A DNA stretch of 63,360 bases, the filler included, from Folioceros fuciformis (lineage: Eukaryota): the NCBI GenBank assembly GCA_049999805.1. It is 8 parts of 8 records of this genome, joined end to end, with 100 filler letters (N's around TTAATTAATTAA, not from the genome) between each part and the next. Parts side by side here need not be neighbours in the genome. Positions count along the whole stretch, not along the records: positions 28,321 to 35,002 come from JBNGIO010006197.1; 7 more parts are not named here. One strand, given 5' to 3'. A program made the position numbers and the translations under genes. Positions 28,221 to 58,883 of the stretch are shown here, one piece after another. Position 1 is the stretch's first letter. Every line of letters starts with the position of its first letter. The notes beneath the pieces were generated by a model, which was not told the DNA's origin, ran no database searches, and was given only the letters and a program-made list of their open reading frames with translations.

Positions 28221-28320
28221 NNNNNNNNNNNNNNNNNNNNNNNNNNNNNNNNNNNNNNNNNNNNTTAATTAATTAANNNNNNNNNNNNNNNNNNNNNNNN
28301 NNNNNNNNNNNNNNNNNNNN
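28221..28320. other. Artificial contig linker N44-TTAATTAATTAA-N44 (also 35003-35102, 37577-37676, 47091-47190, 56238-56337, 58784-58883, 61078-61177)
   Basis: An identical 100-nt spacer with a six-frame-stop 12-mer occurs seven times. Confidence 0.95.
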
Positions 28321-28745
28321 TCGCCCCGAACAGCACACATGGTAAGAATGTTCTTAGCCTCATATGTCTGTGTAAGAAGAGTCCAGATCTCTTCAGCCTT
28401 GGTGAGAAAAGCAACATCGGCGAGGAGGGATTCGTCCAGCCCGCTGATTAAGACGGCGCGTGCGACGTAATTCAGGTTCGCCCACTTGTCCTTTTCGTCT
28501 TGTGTAGCAGATGATGCTGGTTCTTTGAGCGTGCCAGTAACAACTCCCCAAACGTGTCGCGCTTGCAGGGCAGCTGTCATGCGCACCTTCCAGCCTTCGA
28601 ATTTCAAGCCATTAAACCTGTCCCTCTCCTTGAATTCAACAGAATAAGAAGGCTGAGGTATGACAGGGACTGCAGGAAGAATGGGAACAGATCCCGCTCC
28701 GCTGCTACTTCCAGCACCGCTTCCCCCTGTGCTTCCAGTTGCCAT
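28321..28745 (-). CDS. gag: Copia gag N-terminus (element A), 3'-partial
   Basis: RFNGLKFEGWKVRM...LWG-like HVWGVVTG, and AEEIWTLLTQTYE, typical of copia gag. Confidence 0.85.
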
Positions 28746-29214
28746 GGCAACCTACTTAGGGAAGAAGGGATCAAGGCGGGTGATCAAGCCGCGCAAGACC
28801 TTCTTCAATAAGTGCTTGGACAAGGAGGATTAGGTTGCTGAAAGTTATGTGCTTGAAATCGTGGTTGTTCTTTCTTACGGTGTATTGTCTCCAGCGAGAC
28901 CTTGTTGGGCACAGAATTCAGGGGTCATCCAACGTGATGGCTGCTGGATCCTGAGCCCAATTGAAGGTCTCGCCAGGGGTAATTACAACGTAGGTTGAGT
29001 GCTCTACAGGCATCTAATGTTGCAGGTCCGAAAGTCGCGACGCTTCAAAGTTGGGGCGTCCATACGACAGAGCACAGCCAGCAAGCGCAACGGCAACGCC
29101 TCTTGGAATCTCAGCAGCTATGATGGGTCACAGATCCCAGCCAGGACTTGGCCGCGCCGAAATTCCAGCAGACGACGTTTCGGATCTGGCGGTGCAGTGA
29201 GACTTGGCCGACTG

Positions 29215-29739
29215 CTACAGCGCCGCCGGCGACTCCTTCGATCTGAACTTCTCGCGATTGGGAGAAAGCATCTGCAGCAAATCTGTGACTGTAGAAGGCG
29301 CTCCTGAATTAGAGGTAAACTCCTGCATCAATTCTGTTAAATCTCGCACTTCCTTCAACAGAGTGGTTTGTATTCGCAAGAAAAGGTCGATTGCTGCCAG
29401 AATTTCTTGATGCCGAGCAATTTGCATCTCACTCTGGCGAGAGAGAGCCGTCAGCAACACTGATTGTGTAGTTGTCAACCTGTCACTGAGCACTCTGTAA
29501 GCCCCATCAATTTCAGGTATGTCTGTTGATCCGAGGTCGAACGCATTCTTTGGCTTGACTTTGGGTTGGCCTAAAACATGCGTACGGCAATTTGATCGAG
29601 AGAGGATGTGTGGGATTCTGTCCTGTCTTGTTCTATAATCCCGAACAGGCCTTACTAACCCCACACGTTCACTGAAATTGGAATGGCTGCAGGGTACAAA
29701 AGTTGGAGGCTCGACCCGAGATCGTCTCCGTCGAGGCAT
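29215..29739 (-). CDS. Extra 174-aa ORF upstream of gag in copia A (Arg-rich N-terminus, helical C-terminus)
   Basis: Open frame MPRRRRSRVEPP...LLKEVRDLTELMQEF between PBS and gag. A positional counterpart exists in element C. Confidence 0.55.
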   Translation of the reverse strand: MPRRRRSRVEPPTFVPCSHSNFSERVGLVRPVRDYRTRQDRIPHILSRSNCRTHVLGQPKVKPKNAFDLGSTDIPEIDGAYRVLSDRLTTTQSVLLTALSRQSEMQIARHQEILAAIDLFLRIQTTLLKEVRDLTELMQEFTSNSGAPSTVTDLLQMLSPNREKFRSKESPAAL

Positions 29740-30007
29740 CTTCAACTTTCATCATCTGCTGCTCTTTCGCAAGCAGATGTGCACAGCGGAATTTCTAGTT
29801 TCTGATATTGTCATGCAAATTGTAAATTGTAACATAGTACTGACGTTGTATCGCAAGGTGGGAGAGAAAATGTAGACACAAATCCAGAAACCACATGATG
29901 TGACTAATGGATTTTGTGTCCGCATCTTCTCTTCGACCCCGCATACATGTTACTATATAGAAATTTTTGCAGACATAAATATCAAAACGTAGATTGCTCT
30001 GATACCA

Positions 30008-30202
30008 TGTTAAACATTAGAGAATCTCACACTACTCACCAAGTTGTGCATAAAGATTGTTCAATTAATATCAACAAAAGTGTTTATATACAAAAACCCT
30101 CCAAGAGTCACGTCTTTTGGGAATAACTAAACTGCTCTTAATAAGTCTGACAGCTGCTATCGTTTAAATGACGGGTAAACCCTAACGGGGTTTCTCCAAA
30201 CA
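30008..30202 (-). repeat. 5' LTR of copia A (195 bp)
   Basis: TG...CA termini, directly abutting the PBS. It starts exactly where copia B RT homology stops. Confidence 0.88.
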
Positions 30203-33200
30203 TACCCACAATCTTCCTGTACATTGTTGGATCTTCAAGTGCTTCACCATCATGAGCACTGAGCTTTAGATTTTGATCCAAAGGAGTCGAGATTGGCTTG
30301 CACTCAACCATACCATACTTAGTTAGTACATCCGACGCATACTTCCGCTGTGACAGCCAAATGCCTGTGTTGGTTCGTATAATTTCAATGCCCAAAAAGA
30401 ACCTCAGTTCACCTAGGTCCGCCATCTTGAACTCTTGTTGTAGAAGTTCCTTGATCTGCTCCACTTGATCCAACTGATTACCTCCAATGATTAGATCATC
30501 CACATAAATGGTCACAAAGACCAGTCGTTTTGTACTTTTGCACACATACAACGAATGATCCGCATCTGCCATGTTGAATCCGATGTGAATCAGATGCTGA
30601 GCAAGATGCTCATGCCAAGCCCTCGGGGCTTGCTTCAGTCTGTACAACGTTTTTTTCAGCTTGCACACATGATTTGGATGATCCAAATCCTCATAACCTG
30701 GTGGCTGGTCCATGTATACTTCTTCCAGCAATTCTCCATGTAAAAACGCATTCTTCACATCCATATGATGTAGGACCCAACCTTTCGATGCCGCTAGTGC
30801 AATCACGGTTCGAATTGTTGCCATTTTGGCAACTGGACTGAACGTCTCCTCAAAATCTATTCCATATGTCTGGGCATATCCCTTGGCCACAAGCCTTGCC
30901 TTGTACCTGTTGATACTACCATCTGCGTTGTGTTTGACCTTGTACACCCATTTGCAACCTATTGGTTTCTTGCCTTCAGGTAGTTGTACTAGGTCCCATG
31001 TTGCATTCTGATTTAACGCATTCATTTCTTCATCCATAGCATGTTCCCACTTTGTGTCTCCAATAGCTTCTTCAAAGCTTCTTGGTTCCACATCCTGTAC
31101 AACCTTTGCCATATAGGCATGGTGCCTAGCTACATAGCTATCATAGGTCAACCGCTGTATTGGAACCTTCTGCCTTCCAGATCTCCGTGGGATTGAACCA
31201 CTTCCAGGGGCTGATTGAACCTCTTTTGCACCAGGTGTTTCGATTTTCGGTACACCGAATTCCTCATCCAAGCTCTGCTCAAATTCGCTTGAATCATCCG
31301 CACCTGCACTTAGGTCTGGTATCTTTGAATCCTGGACTTTTTCCTTCCCTTTGCGAGACACAGCTGTGGAGCTCGTAGGACTCACACTACCTCGCAACCT
31401 GCCACTCCATGGATTCTGAACATTTGTCGAGTTTGATGACGCTTGCGGTCCACTCAACACTTGTGATTGTTGACCTGCATTGCTTGTTACCTCAGTTTCA
31501 AGCACATCAGCTACACTACTTCCTTGTACTTCAAAGTACCAGCTACCCATTTCATCAAAGACTACGTCTCTGCTTACTCTCATAGTCCGTGTACTGGGAT
31601 TGTAGCACCTGTATCCTTTCTGTGTAACAGAATACCCAATGAAGACACACTTTTCTGCTTTTGGATCAAGCTTAGTCCGCAACTCCTCCGGAATATGGAC
31701 ATAAGCAATGCAACCAAATACCTTTAAGTGTGACAAGTCAGGTTTCTTCCCTGTGAACTTCTCCTCCGGTGTTACACTGTGCACCGCTGCTGTGGGAGTT
31801 CTGTTCATGATGTACACTGCTGTGCTTACAGCTTCAGCCCAATAGTAGTGAGGCATCTTCTTCTCTGTCATCAATGCTCTCGCCACTTCTGCTATGTGCC
31901 TGTTCTTGCGCTCTGCAACTCCATTTTGTTGTGGCGTATAACGACATGAGTACTGCCGTTGAATGCCCTGTTCTGATAAGAATTTGCTGAACTCTCTGGA
32001 GAAGTACTCTCCCCCTCCATCAGATCTTAGGCATTTGATGTGCCTACCTGTCTGCTTCTCAACCATCGCCTTGAAAGTATGAAAATGAGTGATCACTTCA
32101 TTTTTTTCTTTCATGAAATAGACCCACACCTTCCTTGTGTGGTCGTCAATGAAGGTCACATAGTACTTGCAGCCTTCGATTGATGCAGTCTGTGTAGGAC
32201 CCCATACATCTGAATGCACAACATCCAACACATATCTGCTGACATGTTTGTCATGGGGGAACGCATTCCTAGGTTGTTTCCCAAGTTGACATGCTTCACA
32301 TATACCTTGCAGTCCATTTTCTGTAAGCTTGGGTATGCCTGTGACAACCTTCTGATGCTGCATGGACTTCAACTTCTGCACATTTACATGTCCAATGCGT
32401 TTGTGCCACATCTCTAGGTCTGTCACTACCCTTGTACCCTTTGCAAACATGGCTGACTTCAGCTTAGGAACCTCCACGTTCAAGGTGAACATCCGTCCAA
32501 CCTTCTGTCCTTGAGCAATCAGGCGACCGCCTTTCTTGCACTCTTCAACAAAGAGTCCTGCAGGTGTAAATCTAACCTGCAGTCCTTGCTCAACCATCTG
32601 CCCAACTGACACCAAGTTCTTTGTGATGTTGGGTACGTGAAGAACATCTACCAGGCACTTCACTTTGCCATCCTGCATCTTCAGAGGTACAGTTCCTGTA
32701 TGCACAATTGCATGTGTTGTGTTATCTCCAGTTTCTACATATCCAGGTTTGTCAAGCACTTGCATTTCTTTGAACCACTCCCCATGGCATGTCATGTGGT
32801 TCGAAGCTCCTGAGTCCACATACCACACAATCTCATCATTGTTGGATCCATTAGCAGACATAGAGTTAAGCATATGCTGCATGACAAACAAGTTTTCTGA
32901 GTCATTCTGACTGCTGCTAGAGGCATAATTGTTCTGCTGCCTCCTGTTGCCTTGATTTCTCCTTGGACAGTCTCTTTCGAAGTGGTCTAACCTACCACAA
33001 GTCCAGCAACCACTATTGTCTGCATTTGCATCATTTTGTTGTTGATTTCCACGTCCTCTTTGACTCCCCCAGCCTCGAGAATTTTCTCCTCTTCCACGTG
33101 TACTCTTGTACTGGGACTCCTGATTCTGTTGTTGATTTTGGTAGGGATTCCGACCTCTACCACCTCTTTGCCCTCTGCCACCTTGGGCTCTACCTCTGCC

Positions 33201-33854
33201 TCTGCCAGAGTAGAAGGCCTGCTCAGAGTTTTCCTTAGGCTTAGAGGATGATTCCTCGCCTAGGTTTTTCTCCTCTATCATCAACATAGAAATCAGGTCT
33301 GAGAAATTGGGAATGTTTTCCCGAGTCTGTATGGAAGTCTTGAACTGCTTGTAGGCAGGTGTTAACCCGCGCAAGCAAACTTCGACCTTGTCATCATCTT
33401 CCACACTGACACCAATGGACGCAAGGGATTCCACTATCCCTTTGATCTTTAACGCGTACTCATTGATTGATAAGTTCTTCTTCATAACTGTGTTGAAGTC
33501 ATTCTTCAACTGCAGTTTTCTCGCCTTCGTGTTAGTCTCATAGAGTTTTACCAACTCATCCCATGCTTCTTTGGGCGACTCTGCATCCTGTATGTGCCCA
33601 ATCATGGTGTCATGAATGCTGATTGACAGCCAATACATGACCTTCCGAGATCCTTGACTCCAATCCTTCAGCGCCTTAATCTGCTCCGCTGTTGCATTCC
33701 GTTCAAGTACTACAGGGGGTTTTTCATACTCCCCCTCAATGTAGTCCCAATAACCCTTTCCCATAAGAAAGTTTGTAAAACGAAACTTCCAGGCATGGAA
33801 GTTGTTTTTGTCCAGCTTCTCCTGTACGATCTGGTTAATACTGTCACTGGCCAT
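30203..33854 (-). CDS. Copia gag-pol polyprotein, truncated after MYRKIVG by insertion
   Basis: Zinc knuckle [14 protein letters not shown], protease [22 protein letters not shown], integrase [40 protein letters not shown] and IYVDD. Confidence 0.93.
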
Positions 33855-34757
33855 TCTTGCCACCACTCAAGGTTGACACTCAATCCTTTCTTGAGTACTC
33901 ACACCTGATAAATGTCTGAAAGAACCAGACTGCTTCTGACTGGAGTTTTACTCACAAGACCTTAAGTCTCTTCTTCCTAAGAGCAATCTGGTGCGGAATC
34001 ACGCTGCCTTGCGTGAACCAGATTGTCTCATGCTTCGTGTCCTTACAGACTCTTGGCTGTCTGCCCACAAAGCTCCAGTGAGATTTCCTGTCAATTCCTT
34101 CCCTGCTGCCAAGCTAGGGTTAGCACACTTTCTTGCAGCTGCTGAGGCTATTGCAGCTGTTGCCTCCACTTGTCAGCCCTTCCACAGAGCTATGGGGATC
34201 AACAGCTAGTCCAGTAAGCTGACAGGGCCTTGTCGCCCTTCTCCTCACTTCCTGCACAGACCGATATGAGAGTTAGCTGCCGGGACGCTTGCTGCCGATC
34301 TCCCTCCAAGCTCCTCCAACTTCTCGTAGCTGCTCTAGCTTCTGGTGTGCACTCTTGCTGCCTCTTGCAGCACCTCCTACGCCGANNNNNNNNNNNNNNN
34401 NNNNNNNNNNNNNNNNNNNNNNNNNNNNNNNNNNNNNNNNNNNNNNNNNNNNNNNNNNNNNNNNNNNNNNNNNNNNNNNNNNNNNTCTACGTGCAAGTGT
34501 AGGAGAGGAGAGGAGAGAAGAGAGGGTGGTATTGGTGATCACAACCATGAAAACAATACACATCACCACTGTCTTACTATGGAGGTCCGAGGTCTCCATT
34601 TAAGTAGTACATTTAGGGCTACACAACTTCCAGGTTCAATATGGGATAATCTACACTATCCTAAGTTCACTAATAACTAGAACTAGTCTAGTATGAACCC
34701 AACTGGGATAACTAACACCACATGAGTTTAGCTCATATAGAGCTCGATAACTCAACA
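30203..34757 (-). mobile_element. Ty1/copia element B (gag-PR-INT-RT), interrupted in RT by element A
   Basis: Single long ORF from ATG 33854. A putative LTR starts TGTTGAG at 34757 (minus strand); the PBS probably falls in the 34386-34485 gap. Confidence 0.85.
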
Positions 34758-35102
34758 CTGATACCCGAACCACTACTCATGCAAGGAGTGTTCTGTTTAA
34801 CGAACTATCACTCTTAACTCCTCCTCAGCTAGCACCAACCAGTTCACAGGCTAGTAGCAGTCATTCAAATGACATGGAGGATACAGACATGAATGTGCAG
34901 CCACCAGTCCAGGTGGCGACACCACAGACAGCAGCAACACCTCCTTCCACACAAGTACAGCCTTTAAGTACACCTGTTGTAGTTCCCACTCCGACTGGAG
35001 GGNNNNNNNNNNNNNNNNNNNNNNNNNNNNNNNNNNNNNNNNNNNNTTAATTAATTAANNNNNNNNNNNNNNNNNNNNNNNNNNNNNNNNNNNNNNNNNN
35101 NN

Positions 35103-37576
35103 CCTACCTAAACCGGGATCTTTCTAACTGTACAGATCCGGTCTAAGACTATCTAACTTAACTAATTTATACATTTTATTTTTCTAAACGTCTGGTCGTC
35201 CGGCTTGGTGGAGTCTTCTTCGGACTCCTACTTCCGGATGCGGGGACTTCGGCTGCCTTCTTGGACTCTGGAGTGAACATAAATTCTCCAGCTCCGGTTT
35301 CGTCCAGGAAAAGGTTGGGAAGGGAGACGTCCGACAGATGGGGTTCTTGAGACTCCCTTGCCCGCACTATCCGCTCCATGCTGTTGACGATCCGGTCCGC
35401 AGCCTCCCGCCCCTTCTGCATGGCGCCCTCTATTCGCTCCGAGTAGTCGGAGAGGATCGCCAGCATCCTGGAGCCGGAAAGTTTCCGATCCTCCAGGGCC
35501 TTCGCATTGTACAACTCTGCCTTGGCCGCTGCCGCTCCCGGTACGCCGAGGGTTTCCTTCACTTGGGTCGCCACCATGGAGACCTCCCGGGCGATCATCC
35601 GGATCGCGACAGTATCCTCTCTAGCCCGGAGAAGCTCGGCCTTGGTCTTCTCCAGCTCTCCTCGCAGCGCCCGGATCTCGGCTTGATGTGCTTCTGCCTC
35701 ACCCGGATCCGCGATGCACTCGGCTACCTTAGCCGCTAGGTTCTTATCCGGGCGAACACCGATCACGTTGGCGACTTCGATTAGAACCTGGTTTTTACTT
35801 TCCATGTCTAATCGAAGGTTCGTCACTGCGTCAAGCAGTGGCGTGATCGGATCGCCGAATCCCACGAAACTCTTCGGCTGTGCTCCTGGTTTGGAGTTAG
35901 GCCGGGAAGAAGTTTCCGGTTCCTGGGCTTTTGCCTTGCCCTTCTCCTGGGGAGGAGACTTCGCCTTTTGTTTCTTTGGCGGCGGGGAGGTGACTGCACA
36001 GTCTTCCTCATCTGAATCCGGTTCCGTCCCGGACTCGGGTTGAGCCTCGTCATCTGACGTCGACTCCCCGTATTTCAACAGCATCTCCTGATGCTTCCAG
36101 ACCTTTTCTTCCGGTCCGGTCAGGAGTTCTGCATGCTCATACAGGTGGAAGAGGTAGGGACTCAGAGGAGTTGCCCTACTCTTTCCGACCCGGCTGACTA
36201 ACTGGGACACCAGATCATGCATGATCCGGCCCCAGTCTACTTTCCGGTCCCCTTTTAGGGCCCCGAAAATCGTATTCGCGAGGGTTATTGTAACCCTCGT
36301 GGGTTTTTCCGGATGCAGAATGGGGAGTAAAAACTCCAGCAGTCTACGGTTCCGGTTGGTCGCGCAATCCTCGATTGCGTAACCATCTTTCGGATTTACT
36401 GGTCCACGGAACTTTCCGCGGATCCAGTCATCCTTGCGGCTGGCCATCCCCAGCCCTCCGGAGCGGAAGCCATAGACTTCTCTCCAGAGCTTATCCGTCC
36501 ACCTCGCAGGGTCGGCACGGATTGAGCCGTTAAAAATATTAGAGCGGCCTCCGACCAACTCCCTAACGACGAGTTCTTCCTTAAACCCCCAGGGCTTAAG
36601 GGAAAACTCCGAGCAACCCATGGAAAAGAGATCTTCCATGAGTTCCATCCGCTCCTTCTCCACTTCAGGGAGGAGCGGAACCACCTTCCGCAGCTTCACC
36701 TCGACAGGAGATGAAGCTACTGGTCCTTGCTTTCGCTTGACCGGCGGCATGGATCCTAACACACAAACTTACTTCTCACCACACGAAATAAACCTTACTT
36801 CGCTCTCCGATCTCAACCGGAAGGTATGGACTGCAACTACTGACACCTGACACGATTCTCTAAAACACTGTGCGCGGAAGCCTCGTGGAAACGATGAGCC
36901 AACGCTGACGCACACTAAACGACAAGGAAAAAGAGTTGAGGCGCGCCAGGCTCCTGTCTTTTATACTCGGGCGACCGTCCGGACAGTTATCATGACCTGT
37001 ACCGGTCCGGTTTGCGCCGCTTCGAATTAATTACCCGGTCGTGCCCTAATCCGGATAGGATCCGAGCGCCGCCTGGATCGGAATCATTCCGCATCCGAGC
37101 AAACCTCTTTCTTTCCGTAAGATCGCAACTCCGTTCCAATTCTTTTGGTGAACCGCTTTCTAACTTCCGGTTATTCATCACTTTATCATCTTAACACCAA
37201 AAAAATGAAATTTTGAGTTGTCACATTATCCCCCTCTCATCTGTGAGCGTCCTCGCGAACACTACGCGGTTTCATCTGAAGAAGCACTAGCGACGTACTT
37301 CTTTACTCGTGATCCGTTTACCCGCGTATCTAACCATTGGCCTTGCAAATCCTTGAGCTGCAAGGATCCGTTCTCGAATATCATTGCAACCCGGTATGGT
37401 CCCATCCAACGAGTGTGCAACTTACCCGGAAAATCTTTGTGGCGGTTGTCATATAGAAGGACCAGTCCTCCTTCTCGGATTCCATGATCGGTTGGGATCT
37501 TCCGGTCGTAGTCCTCTTTTCGTTTGGTCTGGACCCGTTTGGTCCTTTCGAGGGCTGCATTCCGGATTTCTTCCAA
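35103..37576 (-). mobile_element. Non-chromovirus Ty3/gypsy element E, 3' part: integrase end, PPT, LTR start, long accessory ORF
   Basis: Integrase C-terminus GKLHTRWMGPY..RVNGSRVKKY (37262-37576), PPT AGATGAGAGGGGGATAA (37242-37226), then TGTGACA at 37225. The whole contig is CCGG-rich. Confidence 0.8.
35176..36750 (-). CDS. 524-aa retrotransposon accessory protein (globular N-domain, acidic/NLS linker, coiled coil)
   Basis: Uninterrupted ORF containing WREVYGF, FLLPILHPEKPTRVTITLANTIFGAL, KVDWG, PLSPYLFHLY, PPPKKQK and a heptad-rich HQAEIRALRGELEKTKAELLRARE. Confidence 0.8.
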   Translation of the reverse strand: MPPVKRKQGPVASSPVEVKLRKVVPLLPEVEKERMELMEDLFSMGCSEFSLKPWGFKEELVVRELVGGRSNIFNGSIRADPARWTDKLWREVYGFRSGGLGMASRKDDWIRGKFRGPVNPKDGYAIEDCATNRNRRLLEFLLPILHPEKPTRVTITLANTIFGALKGDRKVDWGRIMHDLVSQLVSRVGKSRATPLSPYLFHLYEHAELLTGPEEKVWKHQEMLLKYGESTSDDEAQPESGTEPDSDEEDCAVTSPPPKKQKAKSPPQEKGKAKAQEPETSSRPNSKPGAQPKSFVGFGDPITPLLDAVTNLRLDMESKNQVLIEVANVIGVRPDKNLAAKVAECIADPGEAEAHQAEIRALRGELEKTKAELLRAREDTVAIRMIAREVSMVATQVKETLGVPGAAAAKAELYNAKALEDRKLSGSRMLAILSDYSERIEGAMQKGREAADRIVNSMERIVRARESQEPHLSDVSLPNLFLDETGAGEFMFTPESKKAAEVPASGSRSPKKTPPSRTTRRLEK

Positions 37577-40500
37577 NNNNNNNNNNNNNNNNNNNNNNNN
37601 NNNNNNNNNNNNNNNNNNNNTTAATTAATTAANNNNNNNNNNNNNNNNNNNNNNNNNNNNNNNNNNNNNNNNNNNNTAGCCTCTTATACTACCTTGGCCT
37701 AAACCTCCATCTCTATCTATTAGGGTTAGCCTTAGTCAACCACCCAGCAATCGCTCTCTGACCTAAGCCGCCCCTAATTCTGACCTAAACCTAACTCTGA
37801 CCTAACCCTAACTTTGACCCAAACCTAGTTCTGACCTAACCCTAACCCTAACTCTGACCTAACCTTAATCCGACCTAATAGGGGTTGTGTCCCATGGACA
37901 CCACTGGGTGCCCTTACCAAAATTGACCAACCTCTCAAGACTACCAAAATGGTTAGTGCCTCTCAACATTCTCCCTCTTCTCTTAAATCATTCCATCCCT
38001 TCTCTCAGATCATTCCATCCCTTCCCTTCAGAGCATCCAGCAACCCTTCAAAGACCCGTCTCGCCTCACCATTAATCTAGCTACTAATCTAACCTAATCT
38101 TCTAACCATTTCACCACAGGATTCACTCAGAGATTCCCAAAAAGAGAAATCCTACCATTTCCCAAGGACCTATTCACCATGTGGAGTCCACATACTCCCC
38201 TTCTCATTTGTTGGCGTCCTCGCCAACTACTGATAATATTTCTTCACCCGCAAGCCATTAACCCTAGTTGGCAAGTTAGGGCCGTTGAGGTGCTGCAGTT
38301 GGATGGACCCATTCTCATACACTTCCAGCACCCTGTAAGGTCCCATCCATGTCAAGTGTAGCTTACCTGGAAAGTGCATGTACCTATTGTCATATAACAA
38401 TGCTAAATCTCCAAGCAAAACATACTCTTGTTTACGCAACTTCTGGTCGTGCCACTTCTTCCTCCTCTCCTGAACATCAAGGAAAACAGCCAAGGCCCGT
38501 TCCCTATCCTCATCATGCTGCACAAAACTAGTTAGCCTCTCCAGTTGGCTCTCCTCCACGGTCAATCGATTGCTCTCCTGCATTCTCAAGGTAGGTACCT
38601 CAAATTCGATGGGCATGACCGGTGAGTGTCCATAGGTGAGGTAATAAGGGGTCTGCTGGGTAGTAACCTTCTCAGCAGTCCTATACGCCCACAAGGCTGA
38701 ATGGAGCTTCCTATCCCAATCATGAGCATAGGTGACGGTGACCTTGCCTAGAATCTTGCACAACAGCCCATTAGCCTTCTCCATGAGTCCATTGGCCTTA
38801 GGGTTGTAGGGAGTGGTCTTCCTATGACTGATATTGAAATATTCAGTCATGTGCTTGACTACGTCATTGATGAAGTGAGTCCCCCTATCACTCACCAGCT
38901 CCAACGGGCACCCATACCTTGTGATGATTTGCTCAAACAAAAATTGGGCCACCACATTTGCTGTGTCCACGGGCAAAGCTTGGGCCTCTACCATGCGTGT
39001 GCAGTAGTCAGTTGCCACCAAGATGTATTGGTTCTGCCTTCCCTTGGACTTGGGCTGAATTGGTCCTACAAAATCAATCCCCCACTTCTCAAATGGTGCT
39101 AGGGCTAGGATGGGGACCAATGGCCATTGTGTGGTCCTAGTAGGCTTCCCCACCCTTTGGCATGCATCACACCTCTTGATGAATTCTCCAGCATCAGCAT
39201 GCATTGTTGGCCACCAATACCCTGCTGCCAGAATTTTTCTACAGGTCACATGGGCTGCATAATGGCCTCCAGCCTCTCCCTCATGTAGGGAGCTGATAAC
39301 TTGCTCCACTTGGCCAGGTTTGACCCACAACCTCTCCACGCCATCAGCTCCTGTGCGATACAGCTTGCCCTTGTACTTAACCACCAGCCTTGTGAAGTAC
39401 AAGAACAGCCGCTGCTGCTGCCGTGTGAGATCAACTGGAAATTCCCCCGTGCCTAAAAAATCAGACACCTCTTGGTAGGAAGGCTTGCGGGACCCTCTTC
39501 TCCCCTTCTCATTTGGTGCTGCACCTTCACCTCTTGGCAACCTAACATTTGGTTTGGCCCTCTCCTTCTCCACTAGGTCTGCTGAAAATGCTTCATCCGG
39601 AAAATCATCTTCTTGGTCCTGAACCACATTCCCCGTTTTCAGCCTGGATAGAAAATCAACATTCACATGCCTGCGCCCTTCCCTTGTTTCCACGGTGAAT
39701 GTGAACTCCTGCAAGAGCAAAATCCAGCGAGCTATGCGGCCCAATAGGTCTGCCTTGTTGACCAAGTGCTTGAGAGCAAAATGATCAACATGGAAGACAA
39801 ACTCATAGGAGAGGAGTTAGTGGTGGAATTTACGACAAGAGTAGACCATGCCAAGTGCCTCCCTCTCGGTTGTGGTGTACTTGCGTTCAGCCTCTGTAAG
39901 TTGACGTCCAGCATAGTAGATTGGGTAGTCCCTCCCCTTCTCATCCCGCTGGCTAAGGATTGTCCCAATGGCAAAGGTTGAAACATCCACGTACACATGG
40001 AATTTCTTGTCCCAATCAGGCCCCTTGAGTGTTGGTGCTGTCACAAGAGTGGTCCTCAAGTCCTGAAACGCAGCCTCCCTCGCCGCTGTCCACTCCCAAG
40101 ATTGCTCCTTCCTCAATAGGCCCGTCATAGGGGCAGCCCGTCTAGCAAAATTTGGCACGAATCGGCGGTAGTATCCCACCATCCCAAGGAATCCACGCAG
40201 CTCTTTCAGTGTGGTTGGGGCCCTCAAGGCAGCAATCACCTTCACCTTATTCAGGTCCACTTCAATGCCCCTTGCTGAAATTTTGTGACCTAGCAAGATC
40301 CCTTCAGCCATGCCAAAATAGCATTTCTCTGGATGCAAACAAAGCTGCGTCTCACGGCACCTAGCCAAGCACAGCCTTAGGTGCTCCAGATGCTGCTCCA
40401 CCCCTCCAAACACATAAAAATCATCTATGAACACCTCTAGGAATTTGTGGAGGAAATCCTTGAAGATCTTGTACATGCTGCGCATAAAGGACCCCGGTGC

Positions 40501-44619: not shown

Positions 44620-46009
44620 TGTGGAGTGATTTCTTGCACACCCAAGAACCACTAAGGGGCCACACTTCCCCTTATTATCGTTGCAGTCTTATGATTCGCT
44701 CCCAAGGGAGTGAACTAATGTCAAGATTACCTACATCTCCCTAATCTCACCCTATCTATCAGCATATACCAAGTGCTACAGCAATAGGTCAGAATTCTTG
44801 GTCCTGTCTTCGACTCCTACCACAACACCAACCCCAGCCTCAACAAAATGAGAACTCCAGCGTTGTCTTCAGCCCTCGCTTCCAGCTCCAAGTATCAATC
44901 ACTTCAATGCTGAGAGGAGGCTCCAGCCCCAAGTCTGGCCTCAAATTCTCAGCATCTAGTGCTAGCTACCTCCGCGGCTGAACAAGAACCTCAACCTCAG
45001 CTAGCTCCTCACTCCACCTTCAACACTTCATTCCACCACTTCAGCACTTCACCCCAGCATTTCACTCCTTCACTTCAGCACTTCAGTCCTTCACTTCAGC
45101 ACTTCACTTCACCCTCCAGCCCCTCACTTCAGCTCAACTCCTCACTTCACCACTTCCACTTCCAAAATCTACAACTCAACCCTTCTCTCCTGCAATTTGG
45201 AACACAACAGCCTTCTCTCTTGCAGCCTTCAAGGCAGAGGCGAGGCCTAGGGCTGGGTAGCCTCCTTGGCTCACGGCCCTGCAACCTCACCTCAGCCAGC
45301 ATGCAAGGTGGTCAGCCATTGCGGATCCAGCCACACGAATCTTGGCAGTCTTGGGATCCTCCACGTTCCCCTAGTGGCAAGGGAAATCAGAACCTTGGTT
45401 TAGTCTCAACTAGCTCAGCGCCCTAAGCCAGGAGTTCTGTACCCAAGGTCTAGGGAAATCGCATCGTAGACAGCCCCCTCCTCAATGGCAGGTTAGCCTC
45501 TTATACTACCTTGGCCTAAACCTCCATCTCTATCTATTAGGGTTAGCCTTAGTCAACCACCCAGCAATCGCTCTCTGACCTAAGCCGCCCCTAATTCTGA
45601 CCTAAACCTAACTCTGACCTAACCCTAACTTTGACCCAAACCTAGTTCTGACCTAACCCTAACCCTAACTCTGACCTAACCTTAATCCGACCTAATAGGG
45701 GTTGTGTCCCATGGACACCACTGGGTGCCCTTACCAAAATTGACCAACCTCTCAAGACTACCAAAATGGTTAGTGCCTCTCAACATTCTCCCTCTTCTCT
45801 TAAATCATTCCATCCCTTCTCTCAGATCATTCCATCCCTTCCCTTCAGAGCATCCAGCAACCCTTCAAAGACCCGTCTCGCCTCACCATTAATCTAGCTA
45901 CTAATCTAACCTAATCTTCTAACCATTTCACCACAGGATTCACTCAGAGATTCCCAAAAAGAGAAATCCTACCATTTCCCAAGGACCTATTCACCATGTG
46001 GAGTCCACA
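44620..46009 (-). repeat. LTR of element D (1390 bp), shared between two tandem units
   Basis: TGTGGA...TCCACA termini, with the PBS on one side and PPT + integrase on the other. 45494-46009 matches 37677-38192. Confidence 0.9.
45577..45697. repeat. Degenerate ~17-bp tandem repeat containing CCCTAA (TTAGGG) units in the LTR; second copy at 37760-37880
   Basis: ctgacctaaacctaact-ctgacctaaccctaact-...-ctgacctaaccctaaccctaact. Confidence 0.8.
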
Positions 46010-47090
46010 TACTCCCCTTCTCATTTGTTGGCGTCCTCGCCAACTACTGATAATATTTCTTCACCCGCAAGCCATTAACCCTAGTTGGCAAGTTAGGGCC
46101 GTTGAGGTGCTGCAGTTGGATGGACCCATTCTCATACACTTCCAGCACCCTGTAAGGTCCCATCCATGTCAAGTGTAGCTTACCTGGAAAGTGCATGTAC
46201 CTATTGTCATATAACAATGCTAAATCTCCAAGCAAAACATACTCTTGTTTACGCAACTTCTGGTCGTGCCACTTCTTCCTCCTCTCCTGAACATCAAGGA
46301 AAACAGCCAAGGCCCGTTCCCTATCCTCATCATGCTGCACAAAACTAGTTAGCCTCTCCAGTTGGCTCTCCTCCACGGTCAATCGATTGCTCTCCTGCAT
46401 TCTCAAGGTAGGTACCTCAAATTCGATGGGCATGACCGGTGAGTGTCCATAGGTGAGGTAATAAGGGGTCTGCTGGGTAGTAACCTTCTCAGCAGTCCTA
46501 TACGCCCACAAGGCTGAATGGAGCTTCCTATCCCAATCATGAGCATAGGTGACGGTGACCTTGCCTAGAATCTTGCACAACAGCCCATTAGCCTTCTCCA
46601 TGAGTCCATTGGCCTTAGGGTTGTAGGGAGTGGTCTTCCTATGACTGATATTGAAATATTCAGTCATGTGCTTGACTACGTCATTGATGAAGTGAGTCCC
46701 CCTATCACTCACCAGCTCCAACGGGCACCCATACCTTGTGATGATTTGCTCAAACAAAAATTGGGCCACCACATTTGCTGTGTCCACGGGCAAAGCTTGG
46801 GCCTCTACCATGCGTGTGCAGTAGTCAGTTGCCACCAAGATGTATTGGTTCTGCCTTCCCTTGGACTTGGGCTGAATTGGTCCTACAAAATCAATCCCCC
46901 ACTTCTCAAATGGTGCTAGGGCTAGGATGGGGACCAATGGCCATTGTGTGGTCCTAGTAGGCTTCCCCACCCTTTGGCATGCATCACACCTCTTGATGAA
47001 TTCTCCAGCATCAGCATGCATTGTTGGCCACCAATACCCTGCTGCCAGAATTTTTCTACAGGTCACATGGGCTGCATAATGGCCTCCAGC
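46010..47090 (-). mobile_element. PPT + integrase of a second, tandem copy of element D
   Basis: Apparently identical to 38193-39273 (offset 7817); the ORF translations are identical. Confidence 0.88.
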
Positions 47091-47190
47091 NNNNNNNNNN
47101 NNNNNNNNNNNNNNNNNNNNNNNNNNNNNNNNNNTTAATTAATTAANNNNNNNNNNNNNNNNNNNNNNNNNNNNNNNNNNNNNNNNNNNN

Positions 47191-51223: not shown

Positions 51224-52771
51224 CTCCAAAGTTGGCCAGCATATTCACTAAGGAAATCTTCAGACTTCACGGCTGCCCACAAAACATCGTTTCAAACCGC
51301 AACCCTAAATTCACAGTAGGGTTTTGGCGAGCCTTCACCGAAACCTTGGGCATCTGGTAGAGTTTAACTTCCACATGCCATCCTGAATTTGATGGTCAAA
51401 CAGAACGTCAGATACAGGTGCTTGAAGATATGTTGAGGCACTACACGCATGATAAGCAAGACAAGTGGGAAGAGTTCCTACCTCTCCTCAAATACGCCTA
51501 CAAAAGCTCCAAAGATGCGGCCACAGAAGTGTCCCCCTTCAAGTTGTTATATGGAGAGAACCCACCACCACCCGGATTATGGCCCGCTAGCGAAGCCAAA
51601 TGGAGGATCGCAACTGAGGTTGTTGAAGACATCTAGCATGAGATGCACAAAGCAAAGCAAAATCTTTTATCATCTCAGGATCGCACCAAAAAGTCGAGCA
51701 ACAAGCATAGGCGGGAAATTTCTTACACCATCAGCCAGTTGGTGTGGTTACGAATTCGTCCTCACTGGTATCCATCACTACTCCAGCAAAAGCACAAGTT
51801 GGCGTATCGGTTTGCAGGCCCCTTCAAGATCTTACGCAAGGTCAATGAAGTCGCCTACACACTCCATCTTCCAGCTGGTTGGCGCATGTGTCACACCTTC
51901 CATGTGAGCATGCTGAAAACCAGTGATCCAGAGACCCACCCAGCTTGCCCAGTCGCTGCCTGTAGACTCCGTCGACAAGGGCAACCCGAAAACCCTAGCC
52001 GCAACGAACAACCTTGCTGCTTCACCAACACGGCATAACTCTCCAGACTCCACCACGACAAACAACTCGACCACCACACCACCGACATCAATCACACCAC
52101 CCCAACCAAACTCCTCAGCACGGAGGCGGAGCAAATTTCCCCGCCATCCCCAGCTCACCGACCTCATCCAACCAGATAGGATCCTTGAGGTACGCACTTG
52201 TCACTTGTGAAACCGATCTATCCGTGATTGCTTGGTTGGATGGAGCCAGGAACCAGATACTTCTGCCACTTGGGAGCCAGAAGACTTCTGCATATAATTT
52301 CCTCACCTCAGCCAGCAACTCGAGGGCCTGGAGGACTAGGCCTCTTGCAGTGGGGGAGAATGTTACGATCGCTAGGAGCAGGAACGCTTGTGACGATCAC
52401 CAGCATGGGAGACGAAGCCATAGAGGAGGCAGGAGCCCAGCTAGGTTTTATAACACCAGAGGGGTACCCACAAAAAAACCTGACTGTGATAGTGTGAAAC
52501 GGAGCGGGCCAGATAAAAGCATGCTAGAGTAAAATATACATACGTTACAATATTGGCTAGGTAAAGTAAACTAGATTAGGTTAGAATTTCCGTTCACCCT
52601 AGGAGGATGTTAGAGTTAGTTACTCGGGCCTTCTTTGCCTGAACCAGAACTACCCTTCTTATACCGCAGACACTAAACCAAAAGTAGCCTATTGCAGACG
52701 GCTCACTCACGTTTCTGAGGACCAGTCCTGAAAATTCAGTTGGGCTTAAGCCACAGATTAGGAACGTGACA
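51224..52771 (+). mobile_element. Degenerate chromovirus gypsy remnant F: integrase, chromodomain, PPT, 3' LTR (52361-52771)
   Basis: IFRLHGCPQNIVSNRNPKF, HPEFDGQTER, RFAGPFKI, FHVSMLK, PDRILEVR...ATWEP. PPT tgggggagaa, then LTR TGTTACG...CGTGACA. Confidence 0.85.
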
Positions 52772-53485
52772 ACTATTTTCTATTACTGATAAAGAGATGG
52801 AAAGTCTCATCTACTCTGAAGATTGGAAGAACAACCCGAGAATGGCTAATGGCCAAAAAGGGTACTAGCCCCCTTCAAACATCATTCTAAAAAACTACCT
52901 ACTGCTTCCAAAATATCATGATGTAGAATAACAAAAGGCCTACCTACCACCGGTGCCGAAGAATCCGATTGACCTAAGCTTATTATTGTTCTAAAAACCA
53001 TGTTGGCCAAAGCTCTTTGCAAAGCAATGGATAGGCGTTGTCGAAAGAAGGCCACCACATAGGAAAGAGGGGAACACCAATCCCATGACTCTGATAAACC
53101 TTGGTGCACTCCTTCATGAACCTTGAAAAGTCTTTGCCCATGGCTTCATGAATCTTAAGAGCAAGCAGGATGAAAATATGCCCGTAGTGCAAGGGAGAAA
53201 ACTTATGGACTTTGGCCCTTGCACAACCCTCTGCCGCCCATCCAGGGGGGTTGATGACAATTTGCTTGCAAATCAAATCCTTAGTGGGGCATCCGTAGCA
53301 ACCACATCAACGACACAAACTTATTCCCCCTACTGAAAAAAGGTTGGCTCCAAATGAAAACCCCATTGCGCAAAGTATATGAATGCTTCTTATACAAACG
53401 AAACCCGCACTCCCTAGCCATTGAAGACATAACCCACTTGATAGTAGCAATGCATGAAAATGATTGAGACCAACAATCACATGAC
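52772..53485 (-). mobile_element. Degenerate 3' remnant of a CRE-like (restriction-like endonuclease) non-LTR retrotransposon, copy 1
   Basis: VVDVV.TD, GWAA...AKVHKF...IF.LLAL.IHEAMGKDF, AFFRQRLSIALQRA resemble the RLE C-terminus. Homologous to 54465-55535. Confidence 0.6.
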
Positions 53486-54464
53486 CTACTGATGTGTAGC
53501 ATTCATAGCAATGTTTTCTTTCCATTTTCTAAACTCAAGGTTCTTCATAAATAAATGAGTGGTATGAAAGACATTAGTGATATTGAATGCCTCAAAATTC
53601 AACCAATTGAAGGCCCAGTGATTCCATTTCCTATTTTTATCATTTTCAACTCTTTTAGCATAATATAAACTCATTTTGACGAGTCCTTATGTTTCTTCTC
53701 AAAGTCTAAACCATAAACAAGTAATAAGAATCTTTATGGTATTTGGCAATCTTGACATGTTTGGCTCAAGCTCAGCTCCAAGTATAGATTATATCTAGCT
53801 CATTCTAGTACAACATGAAGATTAAAGAGCATAAGGTAATTGTGAGAGACAACTTCAATACAAGTCTAAGAGGAGGAGTAGTCTGAGAAATCATAAATGA
53901 ACGAAATCATTTGTACACTACAATTTGAGCATATTCTATAAAAATCCTAAACATCTATACTCTAGTTGAACTTGATAATGACCTTGTTGCTTAAAACCCT
54001 CATAATTGAATAAATTTTAAAATAAAAGAAATATTTACTTTGCATAAAAGAAACCTAAACTCTTCAAAATTGATGTTTTTTGTACAGATATTTGGTCATG
54101 GGAAAAAGCCTCTAAGTAGAAAAAAGGATGATAGGAGAAACCCCTTTCTCCACATATAATGTTTCATATGAAAAGTCTAAGCATGGAATGCACTTGTTAC
54201 CCTTGATTGAGCCTATTTACGTAGAAGCTTAAAAATGTTGATTAGGCAATTCTAATGGGCTTATGAGGTTTGATCACACCTTATAGATTAATGGGAGGTA
54301 GCTTGCCTTATGTAAAGAGTGTGAGAATGTAAGGCAATTATTAAACCTCAACCAAAGCATAATCACTTGCTTACGTTGATCTAACACAAACACAAGCTCA
54401 ATCATAATGGTCACCCTCAATCAATGTGGAGTCCCTTTCATAAACTGGTTTAATTAAGGGAAGG

Positions 54465-55535
54465 ATTATTTTCTATTATTCATAAAGAGATGGAAAATCC
54501 CATCTACTCCGAAGATTGAAAGAAGAACCCGAAAAGGGCTAATGGCCAAAATGGGTACTAGCCCCCTTCAAGCATTATTCTAAAAAACTACCTACTACTT
54601 CCAAAATATCATGATGCAAAATAACAAAAAGGCCTACTTTCCACTGGTACCGAAGAAGCCACTTAACCTACAATTATTGCTATTTTAAAAACCATGTTGG
54701 CCAAAGCTCTTTGCAAAGCAATAGATAGGAGTNNNNNNNNNNNNNNNNNNNNNNNNNNNNNNNNNNNNNNNNNNNNNNNNNNNNNNNNNNNNNNNNNNNN
54801 NNNNNNNNNNNNNNNNNNNNNNNNNNNNNNNNCTCTTTGCAAAGCAATAGATAGGAGTTGTCGAAAGAAGGCCACCACAATTATTACTATTCTAAAAACC
54901 ATGTTGGCCAAAGCTCTTTGCAAAGCAATAGATAGGAGTTGTCGAAAGAAGGCTACCACAATTATTGCTATTCTAAAAACTATGTTGGCCCAAGCTCTTT
55001 GCAAAGCAATAGATAGGAGTTGTCGAAAGAAGGCCACCACAATTATTACTATTCTAAAAACCATGTTGGCCAAAGCTCTTTGCAAAGCAATAGATAGGAG
55101 TTGTCGAAAGAAGGCCACCACATAGGAAAGAGGGGAAACACCATTCCCATGACTCTAATAAACCTTGGTGCACTCCTTCATGAACCTTGAAAAGTCCTTG
55201 CCCATGGCTCCATGAGTCTCAAGAGCAAGCGGGATGAAAATATGCCCGTCGTGCAAGAGAGAAAACTTATAGACTTTGGTGCTTGCACAACCCTTTGCCG
55301 CCCATCCAAGGGGGTTGATGACGATGTGCTCGCAAATCAAATCCCTAGTGGCATCCGTAACAACCACATCAACCACACAAACTTATTCCCCCTTTTGAAA
55401 AAAGTTGGCTCTAAGTGAAACCCCATTGCGCAAAACTATATGAACGCTACGAAAACCGCACTCTGTAGCCATTGAGAACATAACCCACTTGATAGCAGCA
55501 ATGCATGAAAATGATTGAGACCAACGATCACATGA
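54465..55535 (-). mobile_element. CRE-like remnant, copy 2, with internal tandem amplification
   Basis: VVDVVVTDAT...GWAAKGCASTKVYKF...IFIPLALETHGAMGKDF. Clear nucleotide similarity to copy 1. Confidence 0.6.
54671..55122. repeat. 81-bp tandem minisatellite (at least 4 units; spans a gap)
   Basis: caattatt recurs at 54878, 54959 and 55040. The unit encodes VAFFRQLLSIALQRALANMVFRIVIIV. Confidence 0.9.
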
Positions 55536-57721
55536 CTAAATCGAGCATGCGAATAGCAAGCTAGCTTCAACCCACTGAGACATCGTCGTGATTAGAGATT
55601 GGTTCTGTACTTAGCAAGTCCTATGCATAATTGATGAGCAAGCTCACAATTCTAGCTAACCAGGCGTGTTGGTCATGATCCCCAAAAGCCTCTCCACTCT
55701 TCTCGAACCTTACACTAGCTCATCAATTCCTAACATTGGTGCTAACATTCCTAACATTGGTGCTAACAACCCTAAAATATATCACGTCTTTATCTAAGCT
55801 TAGGTCTTAAGGATGTAGAGCCCCAATACAGTTACTGCTCCTACATTACCATATTATAAGTCAACATTTACCACCATAATATCTGACGTGTATAAGTAAA
55901 GATATATGAATATTCATTTAAATGACAAGAATTTTTAAATTATAGAAAATAAGTAAAATATACTATATCTTTTTCGACCACCTCTCTAGATATAGTGAAG
56001 AAACTTAACAAATATCAAAAGACCCTATTTCCTTCTTCTAAACATATTTTAGGAGCCCAATTACAAGGGTCGTAGATTAACTCAATGACATGTTGAATGT
56101 ACAACATTCAACTAGACTGAAAGCAACATCCTCATAATCCTATCCAATTTTCGAAAGTTGTACTCCTCCAAAAGATACCAACAACACTTCGCATCATGCT
56201 TCAACCGTAATCCCACGAGCGAGATCAATTTGGGAACNNNNNNNNNNNNNNNNNNNNNNNNNNNNNNNNNNNNNNNNNNNNTTAATTAATTAANNNNNNN
56301 NNNNNNNNNNNNNNNNNNNNNNNNNNNNNNNNNNNNNAGACTGAATGACTACAGTATATGTCTGTGGAGCAGTGGTAAGCGTTCAAATGTTTACGTCTGT
56401 GAGCAACTGTTGCTAGTGTTGCCTGCAGGCGAAGGTGCAGCTCTTTATTAGGAGGCTGGGCATCACATTAATCTGGGTGAACCAATCTTCTACACCGACG
56501 TGTGTATATGGAGTGTGGCACTGCTCACGTCATTGAGCAGGAGCAGGAGCAGGCAGGCCTGGGACGCTGTAGTGTAGGCACATGAGCATGAGGTCCAGGG
56601 GATTACGACTGGGATCGGGCCTTCCCAATCCCAGTCGTCTCAACTCTCCCACCCACACTTGTCCAGGGGGAATTTCACACGCCATGCTGAGAGAGATGCT
56701 CAGCTCTCCCTCCCTGCTAGCACCTCGTGCAAGTGCAGTGCGGGGGCAGCACTCCATTGGCCTCACATTGAATAGCAGCTGGTGGACGCATCCGACAACG
56801 CCAAGCAATCGGATTAAGAGCCTAGGGAGCTACATTCGATGCATGCCCAGATCGCCCTCACCCAGTACCTGCACCTCTCGGTGCAATTTGGAACTCCTTA
56901 GTCCACTTCCCTACGTTGCTGCAGCTTTTAAGCAGCTTCCTTGGAAGCATTTCGAAGGACGACTTCTCCAGATAGCAGCAGCGGGATTTGGACACTTCTC
57001 CAGGGAGCCCGATTTGGGCACATCATGACAAACGGCGTTTACCCACCAGGATCTTGTCTGCCACAGGAACGGGCTCTGGAGGGCAACTCTCCACTGCTTG
57101 CCAGACGCGTGCTCTACGCTTGCCCTCAACCACGTGACCTGCCAACGGAGCATCATCCGAACAAGGCAGCCATGCCCAGACTGTGCTTTCTGTAAGCACC
57201 TCTTACATTGCTGTATCAAATCCTTCATGATTCCCCGGCCAGAACGGCGAGCAAGGGGAGGAGGCCAGATTGGAACAACAACCCCATGCACATTCCGCAA
57301 TTTCCCATTATTATTTCCACTGCTCTCATGGACAAGTGCTGAGGCCGCTGTACGCTGTACATTTGCCTGTTTGCAGTAAGTACCGCACAGTGACTTACTA
57401 CTGTACTGGCTCTGGCTACTGTGCTATCTACCTTACAACCCCCTCTCAATAAAGGGGCGCAACCGCCTTCTGACATAGAAGAATCTACTCCAAACAACCC
57501 GGTTAACATGTCCCATCGCCAATATAGTTCTTCAAACTAGGCAGAATGTCTCCCTTTAACAAAGATAGCAGCGGTTGTCACTAACCACAGATAGGCCTTC
57601 AGTAGAGCTGTCATGGATCACCAATCGTGACAAATTCACCACTCATCAATACCCGGGCCCCAAGATGCTAACGCATGTTATCCAGCTTATGGTACAGTAA
57701 ATGTTAGACTTGCTCACTCTT

Positions 57722-58783: not shown

Positions 58784-58883
58784 NNNNNNNNNNNNNNNNN
58801 NNNNNNNNNNNNNNNNNNNNNNNNNNNTTAATTAATTAANNNNNNNNNNNNNNNNNNNNNNNNNNNNNNNNNNNNNNNNNNNN

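Follow-up and report, generated by a model that had tools for sequence, protein, structure and literature searches.

The 63,360-nt stretch of Folioceros fuciformis DNA analysed here, called the window below, contains the 5′ part of a Ty1/copia retrotransposon, element A, in which a sense open reading frame (ORF) of 174 codons, ORF174, lies between its primer-binding site (PBS) and gag. A second copia element in the window, element C, holds an ORF of 144 codons, ORF144, at a comparable position. All features of both elements were read on the minus strand, and those of element A are as follows.

30202-30008, minus strand: 5′ long terminal repeat (LTR) of 195 bp with TG...CA ends and, at about 30090-30083, a TATATAAA motif
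30007-29996, minus strand: PBS, 12 nt, directly after the terminal CA of the LTR
29993-29794, minus strand: leader hairpin, 200 nt, imperfect, between PBS and ORF174, enclosing 7 upstream AUGs
29739-29215, minus strand: ORF174 (protein P0001), 174 codons, between PBS and gag
29214-28746, minus strand: spacer from the ORF174 stop to the gag ATG, 469 nt
28745-28322, minus strand: N-terminal 141 codons of gag, ending at the N run 28221-28320

The leader of element A measures 1,262 nt, with the gag ATG at 28745. The gag fragment matches the Pfam family PF14223 Retrotran_gag_2 (E 1.2e-11, 44.8 bits against a cut-off of 27), and this copia-type gag, together with the TG...CA LTR and its adjoining PBS, identifies element A as a Ty1/copia member. 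The sequence of A ends after 141 gag codons; in element C an integrase-like ORF follows gag, and the reverse transcriptase (RT) region would lie beyond the gap at 47190. A blastn self-search found no 3′ LTR of A or second LTR copy in the window. The PBS 12-mer, which we take to be complementary to the 3′ terminus of complete initiator tRNA-Met, has two perfect matches in the window, those of elements A and C, compared with a mean of 0.35 matches in shuffled sequence at up to one mismatch. A tRNA scan returned no tRNA genes in the window, and no Rfam family was found over its whole length.

Element A has inserted into a further copia element, host B, within its RT/RNase H region; the polyprotein ORF of host B, 1,238 aa long (33854-30138, minus strand), matches Pfam RVT_2 (E 4e-82), rve and gag_2. 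Because the host B ORF loses its copia likeness exactly at the LTR, the outer (5′) edge of the A LTR is well defined. Host B itself (30203-34385, minus strand) has an intact gag-pol frame of 1,238 codons up to the insertion of A and a leader of more than 530 nt without an initiator-tRNA-Met-type PBS; long leaders may be common among the copia elements of this genome. Elements A and C are both nested in older retrotransposons.

The 469-nt spacer contains three AUGs and no sense ORF of at least 40 codons from an ATG, folds at −165.9 kcal/mol (z −3.57), and carries a run of 12 pyrimidines followed by AG (about 28769-28752) that ends 6 nt before the gag ATG. This pyrimidine-AG motif may be a candidate splice acceptor. 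It had been described in the original prediction, made from the sequence of this DNA, and the run was read in the sequence as stated; the 1.26-kb leader with a 174-aa ORF was likewise borne out (the ATG lies 268 nt past the last LTR base, against 269 in the earlier count), and the positional statements proved correct to within 1 nt. Two ways of joining ORF174 to gag were considered and dropped. Splicing from a donor within ORF174 to the AG preceding gag would, as read from the sequence, bring together frames that do not match. A fusion by read-through or frameshifting was set aside because the two ORFs are in different frames and the 469 nt separating them contain stops.

As a reading frame, ORF174 is open only from 29748, and its ATG is the first after the preceding stop. 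When leader A was shuffled 2,000 times with its dinucleotides preserved, a sense ORF of this length appeared 8 times. On a codon log-odds score for which ten long ORFs in the window served as the training set, ORF174 reached 0.157 in its own frame and fell below zero in each of the five others; real in-frame windows, for reference, gave 0.224 ± 0.078 (n = 82), and the ten spurious ORFs (100 codons or longer) ranged from −0.27 to 0.081. Both the shuffle and the codon-score tests are weak, since every ORF is without stops by definition.

ORF174 is likely to be a real accessory gene because it is kept intact in one diverged relative, the protein P0003. A HMMER search with ORF174 against 1,835,955,588 representative proteins gave a single match at E ≤ 0.001, namely P0003, a protein of 185 aa (E 2.5e-27) in which residues 1-183 align with residues 1-172 of ORF174. 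P0003 forms a singleton cluster and comes from a 939-nt contig of a public-run assembly. By BLASTP, 78 of 184 positions are identical and 114 of 184 positive (E 2e-40), so that identity amounts to 42-45% over the full length, with both start and end kept. The two proteins share the start M-x-R-R-x-R-S-R-x-E, their C-terminal parts align, and the three gaps between them are all in frame. Identity is unevenly distributed: 19 of 70 (27%) over residues 1-70, 44 of 75 (59%) over residues 71-145 and 15 of 29 (52%) over residues 146-174. No longer or fused form of ORF174 relatives was present among the 1.84 billion representatives. In a word-index search of 5.8 billion proteins, none of the 60 candidates for ORF174 was confirmed, and a profile of ORF174 plus P0003 retrieved only P0003 among 1,015 candidates. 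At the contig level, the ORF174 profile had 0 of 153 pattern matches confirmed in metagenome contigs and 0 of 47 in viral contigs; for the gag profile the counts were 0 of 589 and 0 of 159, respectively.

We simulated neutral drift by placing random substitutions (transition/transversion ratio 2) on the ORF174 DNA until amino acid identity fell to 45%; the model contained substitutions only, and indels would lower survival further. The drifted sequences held a mean of 5.0 in-frame stops, and only 31 of 5,000 runs were stop-free; in 8 of 5,000 the frame was stop-free and the ATG was also kept. In addition, 36 of the 96 mismatched columns between ORF174 and P0003 (37.5%) are BLOSUM62-positive replacements, compared with a neutral expectation of 24.3 ± 4.5%, and the observed share was reached in 6 of 2,000 runs. 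Taken with the conservative replacements, the open frame speaks for selection that acts on the reading frame and, to some extent, on the residues of the predicted ORF174 protein.

DNA sequencing runs of the same organism contained a further relative. In two runs, X1 and X2, locus A stands at single-copy depth, and one contig (X1/X2), which spans 28738-30202, differs by 7 substitutions and 1 indel. A further contig (1,522/1,618 nt), at about twice the depth of locus A, matches A in four patches only, given here in the coordinates of the window.

28569-28702: gag start, 19 differences
29366-29529: ORF codons 71-124, 164 nt, 33 differences
29705-29794: ORF174 start and 55 nt upstream
29883-30031: LTR end, PBS and 5′ arm of the hairpin

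From this contig, a diverged family member in the same organism is seen to keep what appears to be the order LTR-PBS-ORF-gag with a leader of similar length. Vicient & Casacuberta 2020 call an accessory ORF conserved when all or most copies of a family have it; here two patches of the ORF are kept in the contig, and the frame is intact in the window copy and in P0003. The patches of the contig coincide with the parts where P0003 most resembles ORF174. Within the 164-nt patch, P0003 requires at least 22 nucleotide changes and the contig shows 33; outside the patches, the maximum possible nucleotide identity of P0003 is 63% and 73%, under the 80% threshold of the contig matching. It is plausible, on these comparisons, that P0003 could be the ORF of the element on this contig.

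A third run, X3, differs from the window over 28322-30210 almost solely by C>T (130) and G>A (122), a bisulfite-like pattern. At 28785-28821, among the rows listed, the converted cytosines are non-CG, and the CG cytosines 28790 and 28792 are not among them, which hints at CG methylation of element A.

The predicted product of ORF174 is a protein of 19.9 kDa with an isoelectric point (pI) of 10.2. Its residues 1-70 are Arg-rich, with an RRRR run, 16 R/K and 8 P (pI 11.7), and in an AlphaFold model built on the two-sequence alignment residues 14-70 have a predicted local distance difference test score (pLDDT) below 50 and are predicted to be disordered. The model continues with one long helix at residues 75-144 (block-mean pLDDT 93-98) and a short helix at 148-158. 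The long helix is amphipathic, and over residues 108-144 hydrophobic residues occupy 80% of heptad a/d positions. No Pfam family was found for ORF174 or ORF144 at E ≤ 1, and the best hit of ORF174 among PDB sequences had E 0.43. Foldseek of the ORF174 model against viral models gave no match at E ≤ 0.001 (best E 1.4), and in a protein atlas the best score, 0.78 for bornavirus p24, was inside the chance range.

Upstream of ORF174, the leader is strongly structured. The hairpin of A begins 3 nt after the PBS, with nested inverted repeats centred near 29897, and taken alone has a folding energy of −73.9 kcal/mol (z −9.4, from 200 shuffles). A 331-nt stretch of the A leader folds at −108.6 kcal/mol (z −6.7), with none of 100 shuffles equally stable. 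For the C leader, the 319 nt analysed gave z −2.96, again with none of 100 shuffles equally stable, and a 121-nt hairpin −43.5 kcal/mol (z −5.2). The post-PBS hairpins of A and C have the same placement and unrelated sequences, that of C being shorter. We considered the A hairpin as an inserted foldback element and dropped this idea, since its 5′ arm is retained in the relative contig and element C carries a hairpin in the corresponding position. In A, 12 AUGs were counted between the predicted start region and the ORF174 AUG, 7 of them inside the hairpin; in C, too, most of the upstream AUGs are enclosed by the hairpin. In both A and C, an AUG at the LTR/PBS junction opens an upstream ORF (uORF) of 8 codons, whose stop lies 9 nt (A) or 2 nt (C) inside the predicted base of the stem.

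Element C was read as follows.

About 51223-51006, minus strand: 5′ LTR, its start resembling the start of the A LTR (alignment)
51005-50994, minus strand: PBS, identical to that of A
50984-50878, minus strand: leader hairpin, same place as in A, different sequence
50751-50317, minus strand: ORF144 (protein P0002), ATG 254 nt after the LTR
50073-47191, minus strand: gag-integrase body, degenerate, ending at the N run at 47190
48564-47569, minus strand: integrase-like ORF, after gag

Element C is a dead copy, with the first in-frame gag stop at codon 126 (49698-49696). A tblastn search with gag A gave 62% identity across 108 aa of the C gag (E 2e-45), and the similarity runs past the stop to 49648. 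C is inserted in a degenerate gypsy integrase on the plus strand, whose integrase-like frame resumes at about 51226 (window positions 51226-51900; motif recognised by eye).

The homologous gag and the 144-aa ORF of C were part of the original prediction and are confirmed, with the ATG at 254 nt instead of 255. So is the divergence of the leaders: blastn found no match between leaders A and C, the best local DNA match outside the PBS scored 23 against a shuffle mean of 21.9, and a global MAFFT alignment was uninformative. The proposed resemblance between the products of ORF174 and ORF144 found no support. ORF144 gave BLASTP E values of 3.3 with P0001 and 8.8 with P0003; Smith-Waterman comparison of ORF144 with ORF174 yielded z from −0.85 to 1.14 (three scoring schemes, 500 shuffles each), whereas the P0001-P0003 control reached z 26-46. 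The profile and structure comparison that had been proposed as a check was equally negative, with an hhalign probability of 0.1% and an unconfident AlphaFold model of ORF144 (mean pLDDT 35). Of the shared traits claimed, the M-x-RRR start is indeed common to both, and P0001, P0002 and P0003 all begin M-[PTS]-R-R and are all basic (pI 10.0-10.9); the helical C-terminus is supported by AlphaFold for ORF174 and not for ORF144. None of 42 candidates was confirmed as a relative of ORF144, and its codon score of 0.080 is no better than that of the best spurious ORF (0.081). A sense ORF as long as ORF144 arose in 27 of 2,000 dinucleotide shuffles of leader C. Read from the sequence, C has no clear equivalent of the pyrimidine-AG motif at the same distance from gag.

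The window contains seven gaps of the form 44 N, a 12-nt three-frame stop linker and 44 N (28221-28320, 35003-35102, 37577-37676, 47091-47190, 56238-56337, 58784-58883 and 61078-61177), which have the look of scaffold joins, and four other N runs are plain 100 N. Elements A and C both end at such linker gaps, and their missing halves may be a matter of assembly and not deletions.

On balance, we consider it probable, with room for real doubt, that a low-copy Ty1/copia family carries in ORF174 a genuine accessory gene restricted to its lineage, a sense ORF between PBS and gag whose product would act on the element RNA. The architecture of the protein suggests that its basic N-terminus may bind nucleic acid and that its helix may mediate self-association; the protein could then act on the element's own RNA in chaperoning, packaging, export or translation. 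Translation of ORF174 would start from the full-length RNA, in which it forms the first long cistron behind the structured leader hairpin, and gag would be reached by a second route, for example a spliced or shorter RNA, or reinitiation. Leaky scanning to gag is excluded, because ORF174 holds six further AUGs and the spacer three. By analogy, one might go further and picture the genomic RNA as a polycistronic, pararetrovirus-like messenger, in which a short-uORF-dependent shunt past the hairpin of about 200 nt would lead to an Arg-rich coiled-coil RNA-binding protein that aids gag expression, RNA export or packaging; to this fuller scheme we give a slim chance. The earlier proposal of a copia lineage with a fast-evolving 5′ accessory protein is supported for the A-type family, by virtue of the full-length P0003, the open frame and the pattern of replacements, and is not supported for the link to C.

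Several points weigh against the accessory-gene reading. The PBS-junction AUG and the ORF174 AUG are separated by nine others, among them an out-of-frame AUGAUG 13-16 nt upstream that would compete with the ORF174 AUG. The protein family consists of two sequences only, and we infer the placement of P0003 in a copia leader; moreover, P0003 owes its place in the library to being an ORF, and this introduces an ascertainment bias. Should P0003 be the ORF of the relative contig, about 22 forced against about 11 silent changes suggest weak to moderate constraint in the best patch, and the conserved leader patches could in part be cis-acting RNA signals. ORF144 is without detected similarity to ORF174, both window copies end at gaps, and C is dead.

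Much of this could also be accommodated if ORF174 were a non-functional relic or a chance ORF, its patches being kept for cis-acting RNA signals in packaging, dimerisation, reverse transcription or the control of translation. The strongly structured leader, the patchy conservation in the relative contig, the many upstream AUGs and the absence of relatives beyond one protein all fit, as would the weak constraint implied by 22 forced and 11 silent changes in 164 nt, should P0003 be the contig ORF. Such a relic, however, would have had to keep an open frame and its ATG at 45% amino acid identity, as happened in 8 of 5,000 neutral runs before indels are counted, together with an excess of conservative replacements reached in 6 of 2,000; the alignment from residue 1 to the C-terminus with gaps in frame only and the confidently predicted 70-residue helix point the same way, and we therefore regard the relic as unlikely. 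Alternatively, ORF174 might be a long uORF whose act of translation, and not its product, tunes gag translation or the fate of the RNA, so that openness and position are selected. Its place upstream of gag on the same RNA strand, the like positions of the ORFs in A and C (268 and 254 nt) with differing sequences, and the identity of only 27% over the N-terminal 70 residues of P0001 and P0003 would suit this idea, yet the replacements are conservative beyond neutral expectation, the helix region, at 59% identity, has a confidently predicted fold, and 469 nt with three AUGs between the ORF174 stop and the gag ATG make a poor layout for reinitiation. We find this explanation improbable. A transduced fragment of a host gene, or a piece of another mobile element caught in the leader, is the least credible of the explanations weighed here and would surprise us greatly: gene capture by LTR retrotransposons is known (available text of PMC7264820), but ORF174 matches no Pfam family at E ≤ 1 and no PDB sequence below E 0.43, it has a single relative among 1.84 billion representatives and no longer or fused form there, and the relative element keeps the order LTR-ORF-gag.

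A separate question is whether ORF174 and ORF144 are related at all. They may not be: the A family would then have gained its gene alone, ORF144 would be a chance ORF in the dead C, and no lineage-wide accessory gene would exist. We take this as a serious contender, to which we lean slightly less than to its negation. It draws on every sequence comparison made (BLASTP E 3.3, Smith-Waterman z of at most 1.14, hhalign 0.1%), on the failure of all 42 candidate relatives of ORF144, on its mean pLDDT of 35, on a codon score (0.080) equal to that of the best spurious ORF, and on the in-frame stops in gag-pol of C. It has to reckon, on the other hand, with an ORF length met in only 27 of 2,000 shuffles, with an ATG within 14 nt of the A position relative to the LTR, and with three proteins that start M-[PTS]-R-R at pI 10.0-10.9. 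Furthermore, since the protein is already only 27-59% identical by region within the A family and gag of A and C is 62% identical, loss of detectable similarity is to be expected at the A-C distance; the negative comparison with ORF144 is therefore compatible with homology. ORF144 is probably, judged by position and composition, a degenerate positional counterpart of ORF174.

Three further regions of the window lie apart from elements A and C. Between 37677-39204 and 45494-47021, two copies of a 300-nt stretch match at 100% identity at a distance of 7,817 nt, and identical gypsy integrase ORFs of 325 aa occur at 38227-39204 and 46044-47021 with the same 7,817-nt spacing; the region touches gaps (it starts just after 37633-37676, and the next gap runs from 47091), and the repeat may reflect a gypsy element duplicated in tandem or segmentally, or else a duplication made in the assembly. 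At 35176-36750 (minus strand), a 524-aa ORF lies between two gaps among retrotransposon pieces; it has no Pfam family, with a sub-threshold match to WEMBL (E 0.012), and could represent either an additional ORF belonging to another element or an orphan gene. The block 52774-55351 consists of direct repeats, with an 81-nt tandem unit at 54833-55122 and repeats of 160-220 nt about 1.7-2.1 kb apart; the ORF at 54694-55125 is made of repeat from this block.

Extra ORFs are common in plant LTR retrotransposons, and hardly any has an assigned function. Read as an accessory gene, ORF174 is a small copia 5′ ORF that resists neutral decay and is paired with a hairpin conserved in place, which would make it a compact case of an accessory protein combined with translational control by the leader. 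Should a protein indeed be translated behind a shunt-like leader, an accessory regulator and a shunt-type leader would come together in a plant-type LTR retrotransposon. The weight of the claim is modest, as it rests on two protein sequences. Short leader ORFs deserve inclusion in the annotation of transposable elements.

Among known proteins, the caulimovirus virion-associated protein (ORF III), LINE-1 ORF1p and Rev combine a short basic nucleic-acid-binding stretch with an oligomerising helix, and caulimovirus ORF III and L1 ORF1 are encoded just upstream of the capsid/RT genes. We liken ORF174 to these proteins as a working analogy, with no sequence or fold match. The domain order of ORF174 is reversed relative to caulimovirus ORF III, and unlike LINE-1 ORF1p it has no RNA-recognition motif or C-terminal domain. 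Rev is made from a spliced mRNA, and the resemblance of ORF174 to it is limited to the Arg-rich N-terminus with its RRRR run.

Among retrotransposon extra ORFs (eORFs), the closest class is the 5′-forward one. Neumann et al. 2019 scored eORFs at ≥250 codons in four classes of position and orientation, including 5′-forward (PMC6317226). In the available text of that survey and of PMC7264820, eORF-5′F is, like ORF174, a sense ORF placed after the 5′ LTR and before gag, without a conserved domain and fast-evolving; at 174 codons, ORF174 is under the 250-codon cut-off of PMC6317226 and hence belongs to a size class outside the survey. The same text describes eORF proteins as highly divergent and reports eORFs in 582 Ty1/copia elements of 45 groups, with the 3′ forward ORF of SIRE as the sole lineage-typical one, so that the original prediction was too narrow in confining copia extra ORFs to the 3′ SIRE type, while its statement that 5′ extra ORFs typify Ogre agrees with the available part of PMC2533021. 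In the literature as available, which includes the accessible text of PMC2774666, we found no account of a copia family that conserves a small 5′ ORF; the supplementary tables of PMC6317226 may list cases. ORF1 of Ogre (Ty3/gypsy, Tat clade) is, like ORF174, an additional ORF in sense orientation that follows the 5′ LTR/PBS and precedes gag, as in the Medicago Ogre family Mtr70 with a 1,527-bp ORF upstream of GAG (PMC2533021, available text). ORF174 is nevertheless not of the Ogre type, which lies in another superfamily, has a much longer ORF1 and often carries the plant mobile domain PF10536 (in 57% of Ogre eORFs, by the accessible portion of PMC6317226), whereas ORF174 has no Pfam match and accompanies a copia gag.

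ORF174 stands in Ty1/copia, where the characteristic eORF, as far as the surveyed text goes, is the 3′ one of SIRE. The env-like eORF-3′F of SIRE, present in 74% of elements in 19 groups (PMC6317226, in part), resembles ORF174 as a fast-evolving, heterogeneous copia extra ORF. Env-like ORFs have reported transmembrane features (PMC7264820, available text), and none are evident in ORF174. The SIRE eORF also lies 3′ of pol and is larger, whereas ORF174 lies in the leader. The PBS of A and C, presumably of the complete-tRNA-Met type, would argue against an assignment to Bryco. Bryco elements have a PBS complementary to a half-molecule of tRNA-Met, according to the accessible text of PMC6317226.

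Finally, the leaders of A and C can be compared with the shunt leaders of pararetroviruses and foamy viruses (Pooggin & Ryabova 2018, PMC5902531, available text). In shunt leaders the stop of the short uORF precedes the stem and an unstructured landing site follows it, whereas in A and C the uORF stop is placed differently: it falls 2-9 nt inside the predicted stem, and the stem sequence differs between the two elements. Like shunt leaders, both have a long multi-uORF leader with a short 5′ uORF ending at the foot of the stem, and the large stable stem-loop typical of such leaders is present in A as well as in C.

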